Source of the DNA: a virus
Lineage: Duplodnaviria > Heunggongvirae > Uroviricota > Caudoviricetes
Length of the DNA stretch: 4,788 nt
Reading direction: 5' to 3' (one strand)
Virus record (IMG/VR): IMGVR_UViG_2537561727_000003
Span: 1-4,788 of that record
Program-made: the position numbers and the translations under genes
The notes under the pieces: generated by a model
Seen by the model: the letters and a program-made list of their open reading frames with translations, nothing else
Database searches by the model: none
What the model was told of the DNA's origin: nothing
Shown: positions 1 to 4,788 of the stretch, piece by piece
Layout: every line of letters begins with the position of its first letter
Position numbering within the stretch: position 1 is the first letter of the stretch

Positions 1-25
1 GCATCCCCCTGAATAAAAACCGGAG

Positions 26-439
26 ATGATGCCAGTTGCCCGTTATCTCTGCATTTTCATAAACGTTGGTTTGGGAGAAGCGGCAAAACGGGATGTGGGG
101 ACAGGGGAAAATCAGATACCGGACATGGCCTCTTTTGCCAGTGGTGATGGATGGATGAAATTACCCAACGGGAAAATCCTGCAATATGGTCGTGGTGCGG
201 TTACGCCGACATTATCGACGCAAACAATGAGAATTACATTCAGCATCCCTTTTCCTAAAAAAGTGGACTGCGCCATGCTTACTCATTCTGGTGATGGTGG
301 TGCGCCTTTAGGTGCTGGGCGAGGGTTCATGATGACTGCAGAAGGCCCAACATTAACCGGTTTTAATTCCGCTTACAGAACTGCATCAACCAGTTCCACA
401 GTATCGATGAATTACAGTTGGTGGGCTGTTGGTGAGTAA
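26..439 (+). CDS. Silent alternative tail-fibre C-terminal cassette (variable receptor-binding domain), expressed only after inversion
   Basis: Open frame from the ORF track (137 aa). The crossover site at 54-79 lies inside its 5' end, and codons 71-79 (GGA GAA = GE, preceded by GLG) are identical in frame to the GLGE codons of the minus-strand tail-fibre gene at the other site. Only 68-439 (about 119 aa, AAKRDVGTGENQ...WWAVGE) would be joined to the constant N-terminus after inversion. The ATG at 26 has a GGAG only 1 nt upstream (poor spacing), so independent expression is doubtful. A cognate chaperone gene follows 20 nt downstream. Confidence 0.65.
   Translation: MMPVARYLCIFINVGLGEAAKRDVGTGENQIPDMASFASGDGWMKLPNGKILQYGRGAVTPTLSTQTMRITFSIPFPKKVDCAMLTHSGDGGAPLGAGRGFMMTAEGPTLTGFNSAYRTASTSSTVSMNYSWWAVGE
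54..79. repeat. Left crossover site for a Hin/Gin/Cin/Pin-family serine invertase (26 bp, imperfect dyad)
   Basis: TTTTCATAAACG TT GGTTTGGGAGAA. The inner half (68-79) is the exact reverse complement of the inner half of the right site (1960-1971), and the 15-bp core 66-80 is a perfect reverse complement of 1959-1973. The central TT is compatible with the AA of the right site in inverted orientation. Confidence 0.8.
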
Positions 440-459
440 TTTTATTCAGGGTGATTTAT

Positions 460-903
460 ATGAACGAATATGTTTATAGCGCAAGGCATAATGCTTTTTT
501 CCCTGTGGATATGATTGATAAATATAAATCAGAGGGATGGGATTTATCAGATGCAAAGGAGGTGAATCAAAATATTATCAGTGAGTTTATGGCTGAACCG
601 CCACAAGGAAAAATCAGTATTGCCGGAGATGATGGGATGCCTGCGTGGGCAGATATTCCTCCACCCACGCATGAAGAGCTTATTGAAATTACTGAATCAG
701 AAAGACAGCTACTAATTAACCAGGCCAACGAATACATGAACAGTAAGCAATGGCCCGGTAAAGCCGCTATTGGTCGTCTGAAAGATGACGAACTGGCGCA
801 ATATAATTTGTGGCTGGATTATCTGGACGCACTGGTGCTGGTCGATACTTCCGGTGCGCCAGATATTGAATGGCCTACGCCTCCGGCAGTTCAGGCCAGA
901 TGA
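460..903 (+). CDS. Tail-fibre assembly chaperone (Tfa family), partner of the silent cassette
   Basis: C-terminus ...LWLDYLDALVLVDTSGAPDIEWPTPPAVQAR is the conserved Tfa C-terminal signature seen in lambda/Mu/P2-type tail-fibre assembly proteins. ATG at 460 is preceded by AGGGTGA (446-452); the ORF track starts at GTG 451, which has a weaker RBS context. It sits directly downstream of the tail-fibre cassette, as for Mu U' / P2 G. Confidence 0.85.
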   Translation: MNEYVYSARHNAFFPVDMIDKYKSEGWDLSDAKEVNQNIISEFMAEPPQGKISIAGDDGMPAWADIPPPTHEELIEITESERQLLINQANEYMNSKQWPGKAAIGRLKDDELAQYNLWLDYLDALVLVDTSGAPDIEWPTPPAVQAR

Positions 904-1480
904 CATCCGGCGCGGTGCTGGTATCTGTTGCCGTCACCGCGTCAATGTAATCCAGCACAGCGTTAAGTCTGGTTGTTTCTGCCTGCGTCAACTTCCGTCC
1001 GGCCTGTAATTTCAGCTGAATCAGACTAATGGAAGCCATTGCTGCATCAATCAGTGACTGGCGCTGTGCTTCTGCCGCGTCTACTGCGGCACTATGCTGT
1101 GCCTCAGTATCCGTCACCCATTTCTCACCATCCCATTTATCATATGGCGTTAACGGGGCGATAGTGGTTGTATTTTCAGGGTAATCACCCGGAGCTGTGA
1201 TTTCTTTCGATTCTCCTGTTTCGGTGCTATAGATGATTTCACCGCGATGGTCTGGCACATATTCCCATGAGTTAAAATCTGCAGAACGGCAGATTGCATA
1301 ACCAGCTTTATGTGTAACTGGTGCATCTAAACAAGAACATGCCGGGATACCGACGCCGACAGCGAGATATTCAGTTGATGTAGAAATATATTCACGCGTT
1401 TCACCATCATAATTATAAATGATAATGTCTCCCGCTTTTATGGCAATGAGTTCACTATTTAATACAGCTTTATTCATCAT
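875..1480 (-). CDS. Tail-fibre assembly chaperone (Tfa family), partner of the currently expressed tail-fibre variant
   Basis: 201 aa. C-terminus ...LNAVLDYIDAVTATDTSTAPDVIWPELPEA matches the Tfa C-terminal signature and the plus-strand Tfa. Its start ATG (1480-1478) overlaps the TGA stop (1479-1477) of the upstream tail-fibre gene (ATGA coupling). The AT-rich 5' half and GC-richer 3' half suggest a mosaic gene. Confidence 0.9.
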   Translation of the reverse strand: MMNKAVLNSELIAIKAGDIIIYNYDGETREYISTSTEYLAVGVGIPACSCLDAPVTHKAGYAICRSADFNSWEYVPDHRGEIIYSTETGESKEITAPGDYPENTTTIAPLTPYDKWDGEKWVTDTEAQHSAAVDAAEAQRQSLIDAAMASISLIQLKLQAGRKLTQAETTRLNAVLDYIDAVTATDTSTAPDVIWPELPEA

Positions 1481-2799
1481 GCAGCCCTCACAATATAATT
1501 AAAGGCGATGTTACGTGGACGATTTTCATTTGCTGTTGGAACAACATTTGCCGCCGAGAAGTGAACATCTTGTCGGATTTTTCGGTCATTAGCGTATGTC
1601 ATAGACACATTGATGTTATTCCGGACTGAGGTACCTCCGTAAAAAGCCCCACTCACACTTTGAACATCGACAATTGCATTAATTTCGCTGTTTACGCGCA
1701 ACTGACCAAAACCGCCAGTAATGTTTCGAATAGCATCTCCTTGCGATGAAAGCAGAGTTCGCCCACTATCCACACCACGTTCATCATCCCAGCCACGAAT
1801 AAACTCACCACGTAAATCAGGCAATTTATTGGTCGGGTAAGCCTTTGCCAGTTCCGGGTATTCTTCAGCAGAAAAAGCCGCACCATTGCATTTCAGCCAG
1901 CCTGTTGGCGGAGTGGCTGAAGGCCACGGAACAGGCACACCAACCGGTAATGCAGAGCCTTCTCCCAAACCAAGGTATGCGAGAAGACCAGCTACATCCT
2001 TTCCACTCAAATGAGTCAGCGTCTCATCCAGTGGCTGCTTACCTGACAGCGCATTGTTAATGGTGGTGCTGAATTTCGGGTCATTGTTAATGGCTGCGGC
2101 AATTTCTTTCAGTGTGTCCAGCGTGGCTGGCGCACCGTTAATCAGAGCGGTAATAGCGGCCTGAACAAACGCAGTGGTCGCAATCCGCGTGGTGTTATTT
2201 CCTGCGGCAGGCGTCGGCGCTTTTGGTTCTCCGGTAAATGTCGGATTATGTTTCTGCGCATACTGTGTATGAGGATCCTGTGCGGCAATGTGGTTTCTCA
2301 TCTGGTCATCCACATACAGCCTTAATTCCAGGACTTCATCATCCACGTATTTACGGGTCGCCAGTACCACCGACGGGTCGATTTTCAGCGTGATAGCTTC
2401 GGTATTCGTGACAACCAGAATCATGCGGATAGTCTGGGTACGACCACTGCCTTCCTGCAACTGCGGTTTGTACGTTTCCGGGCAGTTCGCCACCGCAATG
2501 AGTACGCCTTCATCATCATAAAGCCCAATCTCACGGATCCAGAATCCGCCCTCGTTCTCAGGGATGATTTGCTCCGCAATAATCTGGCTCTGGTTGTTCG
2601 GGTCAACACTCAGAAGATTCAGCGGCGCGATGCGTTTCTGGTTAATCAGTTTTGTCTGTGCCGGGTCTGGTGTCGGCAAGACACCATTCGCATCACCAAC
2701 GGCCATTTGCGTCAGATTCAGCTTACTGCCGAGCATCGTCGCGTTAGCCAGCCGTGCTGCGCCCTGATTAGTCAGAATGGCGTAGTATTTCACTGTCAT
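1477..2799 (-). CDS. Tail-fibre protein (P2 gpH / Mu S-like constant N-terminus fused to a variable C-terminal domain)
   Basis: 440 aa. N-terminus MTVKYYAILTNQGAARLANA...MAVGDANG resembles the N-terminus of P2 gpH-type tail fibres (from memory). The C-terminal part contains a tail-collar-like stretch (PVGVPVPWP...GWLKCNGAAFSAEEYPELAKAY). Start ATG 2799-2797 overlaps the stop of the upstream gpI-like gene. The crossover site at 1960-1985 lies in codons 273-281 (LLAYLGLGE), separating constant residues 1-280 from variable residues 281-440. Confidence 0.9.
   Translation of the reverse strand: MTVKYYAILTNQGAARLANATMLGSKLNLTQMAVGDANGVLPTPDPAQTKLINQKRIAPLNLLSVDPNNQSQIIAEQIIPENEGGFWIREIGLYDDEGVLIAVANCPETYKPQLQEGSGRTQTIRMILVVTNTEAITLKIDPSVVLATRKYVDDEVLELRLYVDDQMRNHIAAQDPHTQYAQKHNPTFTGEPKAPTPAAGNNTTRIATTAFVQAAITALINGAPATLDTLKEIAAAINNDPKFSTTINNALSGKQPLDETLTHLSGKDVAGLLAYLGLGEGSALPVGVPVPWPSATPPTGWLKCNGAAFSAEEYPELAKAYPTNKLPDLRGEFIRGWDDERGVDSGRTLLSSQGDAIRNITGGFGQLRVNSEINAIVDVQSVSGAFYGGTSVRNNINVSMTYANDRKIRQDVHFSAANVVPTANENRPRNIAFNYIVRAA
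1960..1985. repeat. Right crossover site for a Hin/Gin/Cin/Pin-family serine invertase (26 bp, imperfect dyad)
   Basis: TTCTCCCAAACC AA GGTATGCGAGAA. The half-sites are TTCTCCCAAACC and, in reverse complement, TTCTCGCATACC. This closely resembles the hixL sequence as I recall it (TTCTTGAAAACC AA GGTTTTTGATAA), about 20 of 26 positions. It lies inside the tail-fibre gene at the constant/variable boundary. Confidence 0.8.
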
Positions 2800-3407
2800 G
2801 CGTTTACTCTCAGGTTATCAATTAAATGAATGGCCGAGGCCGGGAAATAATCCCCTCCGACAATAATGGCCTCCGGGGTGTAGGGATAAACCGTCAGGGC
2901 GTCGCCGTGATAGCATCCCGCAACGGCAAAAATGTTGCCGGTTGTACTTAAACTGATAGCCAGTCCCGTCAGATGGCGGCTTGCCGGTTTTGCATCAGCA
3001 ACGAGGCGCTCCAGCTCCTGATACATTTCCTCGGTAATACCCTGCTCAAGCACGCCAACAACGATACGGAACGTCCCCGGCTCCTCGTTGAGTTGCCACC
3101 ACTCCCTCACCTCAATCAGATAGCCGAGCGGCTCCACCACACGGCGAATCGCACCAATAGTGCCCTTATGGCAGTGAATGAAATACGCATCGCGGATAAC
3201 AGCGCGTTTGGTCGCTTCCGGCCATTTATCATCCCACCTGTCGACCGAAAATGACCACGCCAGCCACGGCAGCAGATTTGCCGGACAGGTATCCGGGTTC
3301 CACAGCTCACGAATACTGACCGGCGTTTTTTCAATTTCCGCACAGGCTTTTGCGGCGGCGACTTCAAGCGGTGATGAGCCGGTCGGCAGCAGTCGCGAAT
3401 CACTCAT
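2796..3407 (-). CDS. Phage tail/baseplate protein, P2 gpI-like
   Basis: 203-aa ORF immediately upstream of the tail-fibre gene and downstream of the J-like gene, matching the P2 order J-I-H-G. A strong SD (GGAGG, reverse complement of about 3412-3416) precedes the ATG at 3407. The family assignment rests on position and recollection, not on a search. Confidence 0.8.
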   Translation of the reverse strand: MSDSRLLPTGSSPLEVAAAKACAEIEKTPVSIRELWNPDTCPANLLPWLAWSFSVDRWDDKWPEATKRAVIRDAYFIHCHKGTIGAIRRVVEPLGYLIEVREWWQLNEEPGTFRIVVGVLEQGITEEMYQELERLVADAKPASRHLTGLAISLSTTGNIFAVAGCYHGDALTVYPYTPEAIIVGGDYFPASAIHLIDNLRVNA

Positions 3408-4233
3408 CCGAGCCTCCGGTCACGACGCGGTATTCAGTACAGAAAGACGCCTGCGTATTGTTGAGCACGATGTCAGCCAGAGGTGCAGTCAGTTCGACAC
3501 GCTGCACGCCTTCCACATGCAAAGCGGCATAAATGGCAGACAGACGGATGTCGCGCCCCAGCCGGTGCTGTGCCGTGATATACGCTTCCAGTTTTTTCAC
3601 GGCGGCAGCGCGAATGGGTTCGCTTTCAGGACCAGGGTAAAGGTAAAGCGTGGCGTTTATCTGGTATTCAACGATGGCAGCAGACTGCACGGTCACACGA
3701 TCGGCCACCGGTCTGACGTCCTCGCCATTAAGGGCGTTACGCACCACGGCCAGCAGGTCTTCGGATGCGACACCGTTATTTTCACGTGACAGCACAGAGA
3801 TGGTGACGCAGGCCGGAGACGGACTGGTGACAGAGATATCCGCGACACGCCCGTCGGCACTGCGACCATGATACTGATAGGCTCCCACCGACCCGGCGAC
3901 GCTTAAGCCCTCAAACGCCTGCTGAATACGCAGACGATAATCGGTGTCAGACTCCATCACTGCCGGTGTCGGCGGGATAGTCGAATCATCTGCCGGGGTG
4001 ATAATCAGGCGCGTGGTGTTGTAATTGGCACCAATCACATCAAGGTCATTACCGGCGGCACAGGCCAGCATTACCGCCCGTGCGGCCTCATTCACACGCT
4101 GACGCCAGATAAGCTCACGATAAGCATTTTCCTCCAGCAGTTTGACGAGAGGCTCGGATTCCAGCGTCAGGGTACGGGCAACCGCCTCCTGCTGGTCTTC
4201 CGGGTATCCGCCGTGGCTGTCTGGAATATGACG
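3400..4233 (-). pseudogene. Baseplate assembly protein J-like, 5'-truncated (no start codon at the upstream end of the open frame)
   Basis: The minus-strand frame is open from a stop at 4236-4234 down to the TGA at 3402-3400 (277 codons). I translated 4233 to 4096 by hand and found no ATG, GTG or TTG; the first possible start is GTG at 4095, which is where the ORF track begins (231 aa). Baseplate J proteins of P2-like phages are about 300 aa, so the N-terminus appears to be lost at a deletion junction. A protein starting at GTG 4095 cannot be excluded. Confidence 0.6.
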
Positions 4234-4262
4234 TCAGCGCCACCGACATCACCAGCTCGTTT

Positions 4263-4439
4263 ATGGCTATCCGCAAGACCATGACCAGCAGCGGACGCAG
4301 CGCCACCTATGAGGCCAGCCGCAGCGAGGAAGCCAGCCACGCAGACCTCGCCTGGGCGACCATGCACGCCCTGTTAAATGAGCCACTCACCGCCGGTATC
4401 AGCACCCCGCTGACATCCACCATTCTGGAGTTTTACTGA
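4263..4439 (+). CDS. Short ORF or 3' remnant of an upstream packaging gene (by P2 synteny possibly the terminase large-subunit C-terminus), stop/start-overlapped with portal
   Basis: The plus frame is open from 4146 to the TGA at 4437-4439. The first ATG is at 4263 (MAIRKTMTSSGRSATYEASRSEEASHADLAWATMHALLNEPLTAGISTPLTSTILEFY, 58 aa), below the ORF track's apparent length cut-off. Its TGA shares the A at 4439 with the portal ATG (TGATG). There is no usable start at the 5' end of the open frame, so it may be a truncated remnant. Confidence 0.35.
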   Translation: MAIRKTMTSSGRSATYEASRSEEASHADLAWATMHALLNEPLTAGISTPLTSTILEFY

Positions 4440-4788
4440 TGAGCAAGAAAAAAGGGAAAACACCGCAACCTGCGGCAAAAAAAATGACTGCCAGCGCCCC
4501 GAAAATGGAGGCATTCACCTTTGGCGAGCCGGTGCCGGTACTCGACCGCCGTGACATTCTGGATTACGTCGAGTGCATCAGTAACGGCAGATGGTATGAG
4601 CCACCGGTCAGCTTTACCGGCCTGGCAAAAAGTCTGCGTGCTGCCGTGCATCACAGCTCGCCGATTTACGTCAAACGCAATATTCTGGCCTCGACATTTA
4701 TCCCGCATCCGTGGCTTTCCCAGCAGGATTTCAGCCGCTTTGTGCTGGATTTTCTGGTGTTCGGTAATGCGTTTCTGGAAAAGCGTTA
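4439..4788 (+). CDS. Phage portal protein (P2 gpQ-like), 5' part; continues beyond the window
   Basis: ATG at 4439 with GGAG about 10 nt upstream. Translation MSKKKGKTPQPAAKKMTASAPKMEAFTFGEPVPVLDRRDILDYVECISNGRWYEPPVSFTGLAKSLRAAVHHSSPIYVKRNILASTFIPHPWLSQQDFSRFVLDFLVFGNAFLEKR stays open to the window end and matches my recollection of P2-family portal N-termini. The ORF track does not list it because it has no stop inside the window. Confidence 0.8.
   Translation, partial: MSKKKGKTPQPAAKKMTASAPKMEAFTFGEPVPVLDRRDILDYVECISNGRWYEPPVSFTGLAKSLRAAVHHSSPIYVKRNILASTFIPHPWLSQQDFSRFVLDFLVFGNAFLEKR

Follow-up and report, generated by a model that had tools for sequence, protein, structure and literature searches.

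The best described relatives of the element analysed here are phage P2 (Peduovirus P2, NC_001895) and the P2-like prophages of Escherichia coli. In P2, genes O and N serve the capsid and M encodes the small terminase subunit. Other defective P2-like prophages of E. coli, of the type of the ogrK remnant in strain K-12, have internal deletions of their late genes, as does the element described below. The K-12 element e14 also bears some likeness to it, with a portal fragment beside a J-like pseudogene and a Pin-type invertible fibre cassette; in e14, however, the two fragments are co-oriented, there is no meaningful similarity at the junction studied here and the element does not belong to the P2 family. 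Defective P2 elements keep their defence genes (PMC13586616), and breakpoints shared between such elements are described neither in that study nor in the literature that could be searched.

The stretch of DNA that we analysed (4,788 bases, hereafter the window) is a complete contig, positions 1-4788 of scaffold JH954133.1 in the draft assembly GCA_000304115.2, and in the scaffold a gap of 10 Ns follows directly after position 4788. It belongs to a P2-like (Peduovirus) prophage that one E. coli strain carries between cpxP and fieF, and its plus strand corresponds to the minus strand of P2. The scaffold is flanked on its other side by ogr and fieF. The cos site, the gpA replication module, the integrase gene and att lie beyond the contig; relatives integrated at this chromosomal position carry them. 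The late genes J-I-H and P-Q have P2 homologues in P2 order and orientation, which places the element among the P2-like phages (Peduoviridae); DNA identity to P2 is 98.3% over P'-Q' and 92.9% over I-J', with the same divergent transcription. In place of the fibre C-terminus and tfa genes of P2, the window holds an invertible cassette, accompanied by a Din-family invertase that is absent from P2. The prophages of E. coli Ecol_224 (NZ_CP018948) and of GCA_019587605.1 occupy the same cpxP/fieF site and carry the same fibre-switch cassette, but they keep the interval from P to J, most of which the window has lost. The features of the window are as follows.

26-439, plus strand: alternative fibre C-terminus (ORF list).
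54-1985, no strand: invertible fibre segment with 27-nt inverted crossover sites at 54-80 and 1959-1985 (inverted-repeat search).
451-903, plus strand: alternative tail-fibre assembly gene tfa (ORF list).
875-1480, minus strand: tfa, the copy in current use (ORF list).
1477-2799, minus strand: tail fibre gene H, 440 aa, in its current configuration (ORF list; the protein is identical in intact prophages).
2796-3407, minus strand: tail gene I, intact (ORF list; Tail_P2_I Pfam domain).
3400-4095, minus strand: J-like ORF from GTG 4095 (ORF list).
3400-4206, minus strand: truncated baseplate gene J', gpJ codons 35-302 plus stop, lacking the native start (blastn, BLASTP, Baseplate_J Pfam domain).
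4146-4204, plus strand: read-through of the terminase frame backwards into antisense J, a non-coding by-product with no start codon (translation).
4205-4206, no strand: deletion junction, TA in both parents (alignment of parents and product, with the same result when the intact relative L050 is used).
4206-4441, plus strand: terminase large-subunit remnant P', gpP codons 514-590 plus stop (blastn to P2 1455-1221; BLASTP 77/77).
4207-4233, minus strand: read-through of the J frame into antisense terminase, nine codons, a non-coding by-product (translation).
4263-4439, plus strand: 58-aa ORF, the form of P' that gene callers annotate (Terminase_6C Pfam domain).
4439-4788, plus strand: portal gene Q, first 116 codons (blastn to P2 1221-872); the gene breaks off at 4788 through the end of the contig, not through mutation.

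An earlier note, made from the letters of the window alone, had described two antiparallel open frames that overlap over 4146-4233 and had read them as the expected remnant of a deletion with one end in the terminase gene and the other in J. Its description of the frames proved exact on translation, and the overlap is present. On the minus strand, the J frame has a stop at 4236-4234, is open from 4233 downward and meets its first ATG, GTG or TTG at GTG 4095; on the plus strand, the frame running up to the portal start opens at 4146, directly after a TGA (4143-4145), and finds its first start at ATG 4263. For J', the candidate starts are GTG 4095 and then ATG 4071, the latter being the start of a 223-aa ORF annotated in the source record. 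Chance alone could account for the overlap: antisense-J read-through contributes 20 codons and antisense-P read-through 9, and stop-free runs of 9 and 20 codons are common enough to be unremarkable. We judge the feature real because homology breaks at the junction.

Two blastn blocks define that break. Window 2971-4206 corresponds to P2 12629-11394 (genes I and J, with the J' stretch 3400-4206 matching 12200-11394) at 92.9% identity, and window 4205-4788 corresponds to P2 1455-872 (the 3' end of P and the 5' end of Q) at 98.3%. The two blocks are collinear and on a single strand, as required of a simple deletion, and they put the break at 4205/4206, within the 4146-4233 interval proposed earlier. 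In base-by-base alignments, with a slash marking the break, the J parent (...CCGGGTA/AAGG) matches the window through ...CCGGGTA at 4206, and the P parent (...GACGTTA/TCCG) matches it from TATCCGCC... at 4205; only the TA at 4205-4206 is shared by both parents at the join, and their flanks are otherwise unrelated. There is no IS or foreign DNA at the join, positions 4150-4260 being fully accounted for by J and P, and IS-mediated adjacent deletion is ruled out, no insertion sequence being kept at the junction. The join is seamless, with a short shared sequence and no mobile element, as in microhomology-type illegitimate deletion, and it resembles the products of short-homology illegitimate recombination or alternative end joining in E. 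coli in sharing 2 nt and being free of foreign DNA. P2 coordinates 1456-11393 are absent at the junction (9,940 bp in P2 terms). Measured against the intact Ecol_224 prophage the deletion is 9,066 bp, and this is the true loss, below the 9.94 kb P2 figure, because the nearest relatives lack P2 orf30.

Both truncations are evident in the proteins. The kept part of gpJ, residues 35-302, is identical to P2 gpJ at 265 of 268 positions (BLASTP), with the first 34 residues lost, and of the 590 residues of gpP only 514-590 are kept (77/77 identical; BLASTP), residues 1-513 having gone. Together with the collinear flanks, this supports the deletion proposed earlier, from inside the terminase gene to inside J in a P2-like prophage. 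Intact J (302 aa) has its start upstream of the junction, and the ORF before the portal gene is not a complete small gene; the alternative named in the earlier note, a full-length J starting at GTG 4095 beside a complete small ORF, does not hold. Going by how P2 is annotated and by gene maps of intact relatives, the missing DNA comprises P codons 1-513, the region of the divergent promoters pP/pO, the genes O, N, M, L and X, the holin gene Y, the endolysin gene K, lysA/B/C, R, S, the pV promoter, V, W and J codons 1-34. Between these break points, intact relatives have P, O, N, M, L, X, Y, K, lysA/B/C, R, S, V and W.

The genes for virion production and lysis that should stand between 4205 and 4206 are absent, and the suggestion that the prophage is defective is borne out. 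Because of the deleted gene set, it should make no heads, complete no tails, form no baseplate hub or wedge, carry out no packaging or lysis and play no helper role for P4, and from P2 biology we infer that phage, tailocin and P4-helper functions are all impossible for this prophage. An R-type tailocin was considered and does not fit, as the lysis genes are all gone, along with V, W, R, S and the 5' end of J. The Ogr-dependent promoter pV, which the P2 annotation places upstream of V within the deleted interval, no longer serves I, J', H and tfa; since both pV and pP have been lost, J'-I-H-tfa and P'-Q are probably silent. The end of the contig within Q hints at a repeat, and a second, intact P2-like prophage in the same strain is possible.

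We are highly confident that the locus is the scar of a single internal deletion of about 9.07 kb in a P2-like prophage, and not a working element. A single illegitimate join, of RecA-independent type, connected the TA in J codon 34/35 to the TA in P codon 513/514. Since P and J are transcribed divergently, the join sets two promoterless 3' gene fragments, J' and P', back to back, and either frame continues for some codons on the antisense side of its neighbour before a stop ends it, giving the overlapping open frames. As a deletion scar, this is ordinary prophage decay.

Two other readings of the locus itself have to be set against that deletion. It is very improbable that the contig is a chimera in which reads from the J region and from the P-Q region of one or more intact prophages were fused. 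The source is a draft scaffold, the junction occurs in one assembly only, the contig stops within Q, which suggests repeated P2-like sequence in the genome, and the neighbouring scaffold join is wrong, since window 1-65 recurs in reverse complement after the 10-N gap. Assemblers, however, mis-join at long repeats and the parents here share 2 nt only; moreover, the flanks have the exact topology of a deletion, and closed genomes from unrelated laboratories show analogous joins at the same nucleotide of P. An e14-like element, with the portal fragment beeE abutting the J-like pseudogene jayE, had been raised in the earlier note, and the annotation of e14 does show a portal fragment beside a J pseudogene and a Pin-driven fibre switch. 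The alignment finds e14 in the fibre cassette only: e14 matches window 3-80, 748-1527 and 1784-1976, i.e. the Pin-type pix/stfE/tfaP/tfaE cassette, at 87-96% identity. There is no blastn match to e14 in window 3400-4788, which is instead 93-98% identical to P2, tblastx of e14 against 1985-4788 gives short fragments (9-33 aa), none of them to jayE or beeE, and the two e14 fragments are on the same strand. For the junction itself the e14 reading is refuted, and for the locus as a whole we give it next to no chance.

The single deletion in a P2-like prophage can also be dated by comparison with relatives. Window 1-4206 is 100.000% identical, with no gaps, to the prophage of GCA_019587605.1 (L006), which also lies next to fieF, and this match ends precisely at 4206; over window 4205-4788 the prophage next to cpxP in E. 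coli Ecol_224 (NZ_CP018948) shows 99.8% identity. The L006 prophage has a separate deletion of 465 bp in the L/X/holin region, at a 12-nt repeat. As one piece, the junction is absent from 5,426 complete E. coli genomes, the partner breakpoint at J 11394 is unique to this strain, and the J' ORF in the 223-aa form annotated in the source record is on record in one assembly only; the form starting at GTG 4095 is not on record. The deletion is recent and strain-specific, because of the 100.000% identity to L006 and the occurrence in a single assembly.

This recency bears on the fibre switch. The invertible segment (54-1985) has the features of a Din-family (Gin/Cin/Pin) tail-fibre switch: inverted crossover sites, of which 1959-1985 sits within gene H, opposed tfa genes (875-1480, minus; 451-903, plus) together with the alternative fibre C-terminus (26-439, plus), and a 197-aa invertase gene (Resolvase and HTH_7 domains) adjoining window position 1. 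That a defective prophage retains its fibre switch, as the earlier note had remarked, is correct, and we attribute it to the deletion being very recent. Recency explains the intact-looking fibre switch and tail genes and no selection need be invoked; it is solely through the recency of the event that genes I and H, the tfa and invertase genes and the tail genes FI-D are still there. The retention of the switch says nothing about function, and the switch is the context of the scar, not part of it.

The modest extra interest of the scar lies in recurrent, nucleotide-precise TA breakpoints that it shares with other strains. We read 27 distinct deletion junctions at base level, drawn from complete genomes, from contigs with the 58-aa remnant ORF (on record in 225 blocks), from one IMG/VR contig (L026) and from contigs with terminase-fragment fusion ORFs obtained by protein search; the sample is biased to the last approximately 120 codons of P, most junctions having been found through terminase-fragment ORFs. 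The TA at P2 1454/5, followed by TCCGCC, is the P endpoint of nine independent deletions (this window and eight others), whose partners are at 2112, 6928, a site in V (L026), 10669, 11394 (this window), 18031, 18128, 18473 and 21847. A second P endpoint, the TA at 1501/2, lies 47 bp off and is used by at least five junctions, with partners at 2112, 10668, 11317 and two sites in tfa. Other P-side endpoints are 1397/8 (twice), 1391 and 1587 (once each). Partner sites are also re-used, 2112 and 10669 each with both 1455 and 1502, 24052 with 1398 and 1587, and 8378 with 7637 and 1391. The other defective P2-like prophages of E. coli, with late genes deleted internally, still have Q, int, the replication genes and the defence hotspot that lies between Q and gpA.

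The crossover falls in TA at 18 of the 27 junctions (the left-parent TA being inferred, not aligned, in three of the 18: L026, L052/L053 and L058), against 4.7% for random pairs of P2 positions with at least 2 nt of microhomology containing TA (binomial p=4e-18). Two of the eight TA in P2 1391-1580 take 13 of the 16 TA-type events there (p=1e-4). At the other nine junctions the join is of the ordinary microhomology kind (1-12 nt) and lacks TA, yet one of these, L051, uses the P 1454/5 breakpoint. A complex inversion (L063), seen in a check for inversion-type products, has joints with 13-14 nt of microhomology that are not TA-type. A pattern scan for non-intact sequence upstream of TATCCGCCG gave one IMG/VR match, L026, which is another 1455 junction; JGI metagenomes and GTDB genomes yielded no match. 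In a BLAST census, the best P copy was truncated in about 48 of 1,646 complete-genome records, two of them among the matches listed, which is too sparse for unbiased endpoints; less targeted finds end elsewhere, at P2 1958 and at 1138 within Q. On balance, the hot spot on the P side is probably real, and we hold this with good confidence.

The TA sites that are used have dyad-symmetric flanks, with the consensus CGG-N-TA-N-CCG, a motif derived post hoc from 15 sites. In a cross-half test, a model trained on reverse-complemented left flanks is able to predict those on the right (p~1e-5), and leave-one-out scores have their median at the 90-95th percentile of the 1,496 TA sites in P2; the symmetry reaches +/-4 only. 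The two main endpoints, 1454/5 and 1501/2, have CG-N-TA-NN-CGCCG in common, which occurs nowhere else in P2 on either strand. At all six informative junctions, the left parent supplies the base before TA and P the one after it, and because this origin is constant the exchange is confined to the 2 bp of TA. An identical 2-bp crossover core, as expected for site-specific recombination of serine-recombinase type at pseudo-sites, is found here and at 17 other junctions. These TA-enriched junctions with nucleotide re-use set the class apart from short-homology recombination in E. coli, since random joining does not predict them.

How such breakpoints arise can be explained in several ways, none of which we would put higher than tentative. 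One is an undescribed, site-preferential TA-to-TA deletion process that would disable P2-like prophages, in which CGG-N-TA-N-CCG sites recombine in many combinations through a dimeric enzyme, 1454/5 and 1501/2 being dominant; its products typically lose the head and lysis genes but retain the portal gene together with the anti-phage defence hotspot and the replication/integration module. Exchange restricted to TA, dyad flanks, combinatorial re-use and weak partner similarity beyond TA are the signature of a dimeric enzyme, not of slippage. We would give comparable credence, no stronger, to ordinary RecA-independent microhomology joining with no site preference, the coincidence of endpoints then reflecting ascertainment and the scarcity of TA in a GC-rich stretch. 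The 2 nt shared at this junction are typical of slippage or alternative end joining, 9 of the 27 junctions are plain joins with no TA, and the survey by 58-aa ORFs detects breakpoints only in a window of approximately 78 nt that holds three TA. Such joining does not predict, however, the reverse-complement flanks of the used sites, and it fits poorly with TA at 18 of 27 junctions where 4.7% is expected, with the 13 of 16 events at two of eight TA, with the re-use of sites 2112, 8378, 10669 and 24052 with different mates, or with the partners of the 1455 site, which match it at a mean of approximately 5.3 of 12 flank positions against approximately 4.5 expected with TA given (manual count).

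Subunit exchange by DNA gyrase or topoisomerase IV, at sequences resembling REP elements or gyrase motifs, seems unlikely. The E. coli gyrase consensus has arms GCGGTAT and ATACCGC around the cleavage site (supplement of PMC6379681), a pattern similar to the CGG-N-TA / TA-N-CCG flanks and, at the hot site, to TATCCGCCG. The parentage of the bases next to TA nevertheless excludes a 4-bp stagger centred on TA; the one register that is compatible predicts the partner's base after TA in half of the cases, whereas six of six informative junctions carry the T of P, and the spacing of GG and CC relative to TA is off by one base from the consensus. A TA-targeting mobile element that once sat at the P site, made adjacent deletions and then excised seamlessly is improbable too. 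A fixed end, variable partners and a palindromic, target-like preference are the pattern of transposon adjacent deletions, and IS630/Tc1-type elements target TA. Against this, neither an element nor a footprint is present at any junction, P interrupted at the TA (after GACGTTA) gave 18 pattern matches in IMG/VR that are all unrelated to P2, the putative end at 1455 or 1502 has no inverted-repeat mate in P2, and seamless loss would have had to occur repeatedly. Among other candidates, the crossover sites of the phage's own invertase (TTCTCCCAAACC AA CGTTT...) and the ori nick site of P2 gpA (GCGCCTCG/GAGTCC, nicked at the slash) are by eye unlike the hot site, IS30 would fit in its 2-bp duplication and palindromic target but would leave an IS behind, and Rpn nucleases act without sequence specificity. 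The hot site forms no hairpin or cruciform (DNA fold z=+1.4), and among the candidates compared no recombinase or other enzyme matching the TA specificity could be named.

Of the enzymology, deduced from the junctions, we hold no more than that the join in the window is one of a recurrent class of TA-to-TA deletions in these prophages, distinct from ordinary microhomology slippage. If the class is real, our best guess, with about an even chance of being right, is a dimeric enzyme that cuts within TA; it could be recombinase-like or transposase-like, and of host or phage origin.

Taken by itself, the scar tells us no more than that the prophage is dead, with a leftover fibre switch. Annotation would gain from labelling J', P' and Q' as pseudogenes and from correcting the scaffold join next to the contig. 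The wider meaning of the scar comes from the terminase-side breakpoint, which is common to the nucleotide among many independent deletions in unrelated E. coli. If a specific DNA-breaking activity is responsible, it would provide a simple sequence signature for spotting such deletions in genomes, and it would constitute a mechanism that turns temperate phages into immobile, non-lytic islands with a defence cargo.

The terminase-side breakpoint of the window (4205-4206; P2 1454/5, in gene P) is common, to the exact nucleotide, to eight further independent deletions, each of which has a different partner. A second TA in P, 47 bp upstream at P2 1501/2, is the endpoint of at least five deletions. 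Besides the window junction, the loci concerned are L002, L003, L004, L016, L020, L023, L026, L027, L028, L051, L052, L058 and L059. Across the P2-like prophage junctions that we read, 18 of 27 crossed over at a TA, with dyad-symmetric flanks of the form CGG-N-TA-N-CCG.

The 1502 breakpoint is also seen in P0020, a 208-aa ORF in which gpP is fused directly to what looks like the N-terminal portion of an IS transposase (...HFCRC|YTPEMK). Judged by its sequence, the transposase part is probably IS21 IstA-like; if so, the left partner of this deletion would be internal to an IS gene and not the end of an IS.

L006, the relative with 100% identity to window 1-4206, is itself not intact. It carries a 465-bp deletion (P2 6390|6855), with its junction at L006 4929-4940, at the 12-nt direct repeat TGGATGCCGGTG; the deletion has removed X and fused L to the holin gene. 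Another P2-like prophage (L063 1101-1996) shows a complex rearrangement in which P 1507 is joined to a P fragment (1961-1785) and the L-X-Y segment (P2 6137-6868) is in inverted orientation. Microhomology at the joints of this locus is 13-14 nt long, a signature that differs from that of the junctions crossing over at TA.

Two pairs of inverted sequences were mapped in the window:

Repeats in the window
54-80 and 1959-1985: fibre-switch crossover sites, 27 nt, 81% complementary, of the TTCTCCCAAACC AA CGTTTATGAAAA type
3406-3422 and 4143-4159: 17-nt inverted repeat flanking the truncated J gene, 88% complementary

Nothing suggests that the repeat around the truncated J gene is beyond chance. 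The crossover sites are 87% identical to the site adjoining pinE of the K-12 cryptic prophage e14, and the neighbouring contig begins exactly at the centre of one of them. This contig start suggests either that the sequenced culture contained both orientations of the invertible segment or that the assembly was interrupted by the repeat.

In the source scaffold JH954133.1 (L024), window 1-65 recurs as an exact reverse complement just past the 10-N gap (within L024 4789-4863), ahead of the invertase gene, which means that the window contig is mis-oriented in the scaffold. The true place of the invertase gene is left of window position 1, and 4788 is the real free end of the contig. This end falls mid-gene in the portal gene Q, which is otherwise intact, and likely reflects a second P2-like copy of Q elsewhere in the genome, which would mark another candidate P2-like prophage.

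Deletion derivatives without head, lysis or tail genes regularly retain the portal gene and, between Q and gpA, anti-phage cargo of varied kinds. This cargo includes retron Ec48 with its RT, a TIR protein, OLD-like or AAA_15/DUF4435 proteins, methyltransferases and a DEAD/ResIII helicase; the loci with cargo downstream of Q are L002, L016, L019, L020, L022, L023, L025, L051, L056 and L063. The cargo carried at this position by the deletion derivatives agrees with the known P2 defence hotspot.
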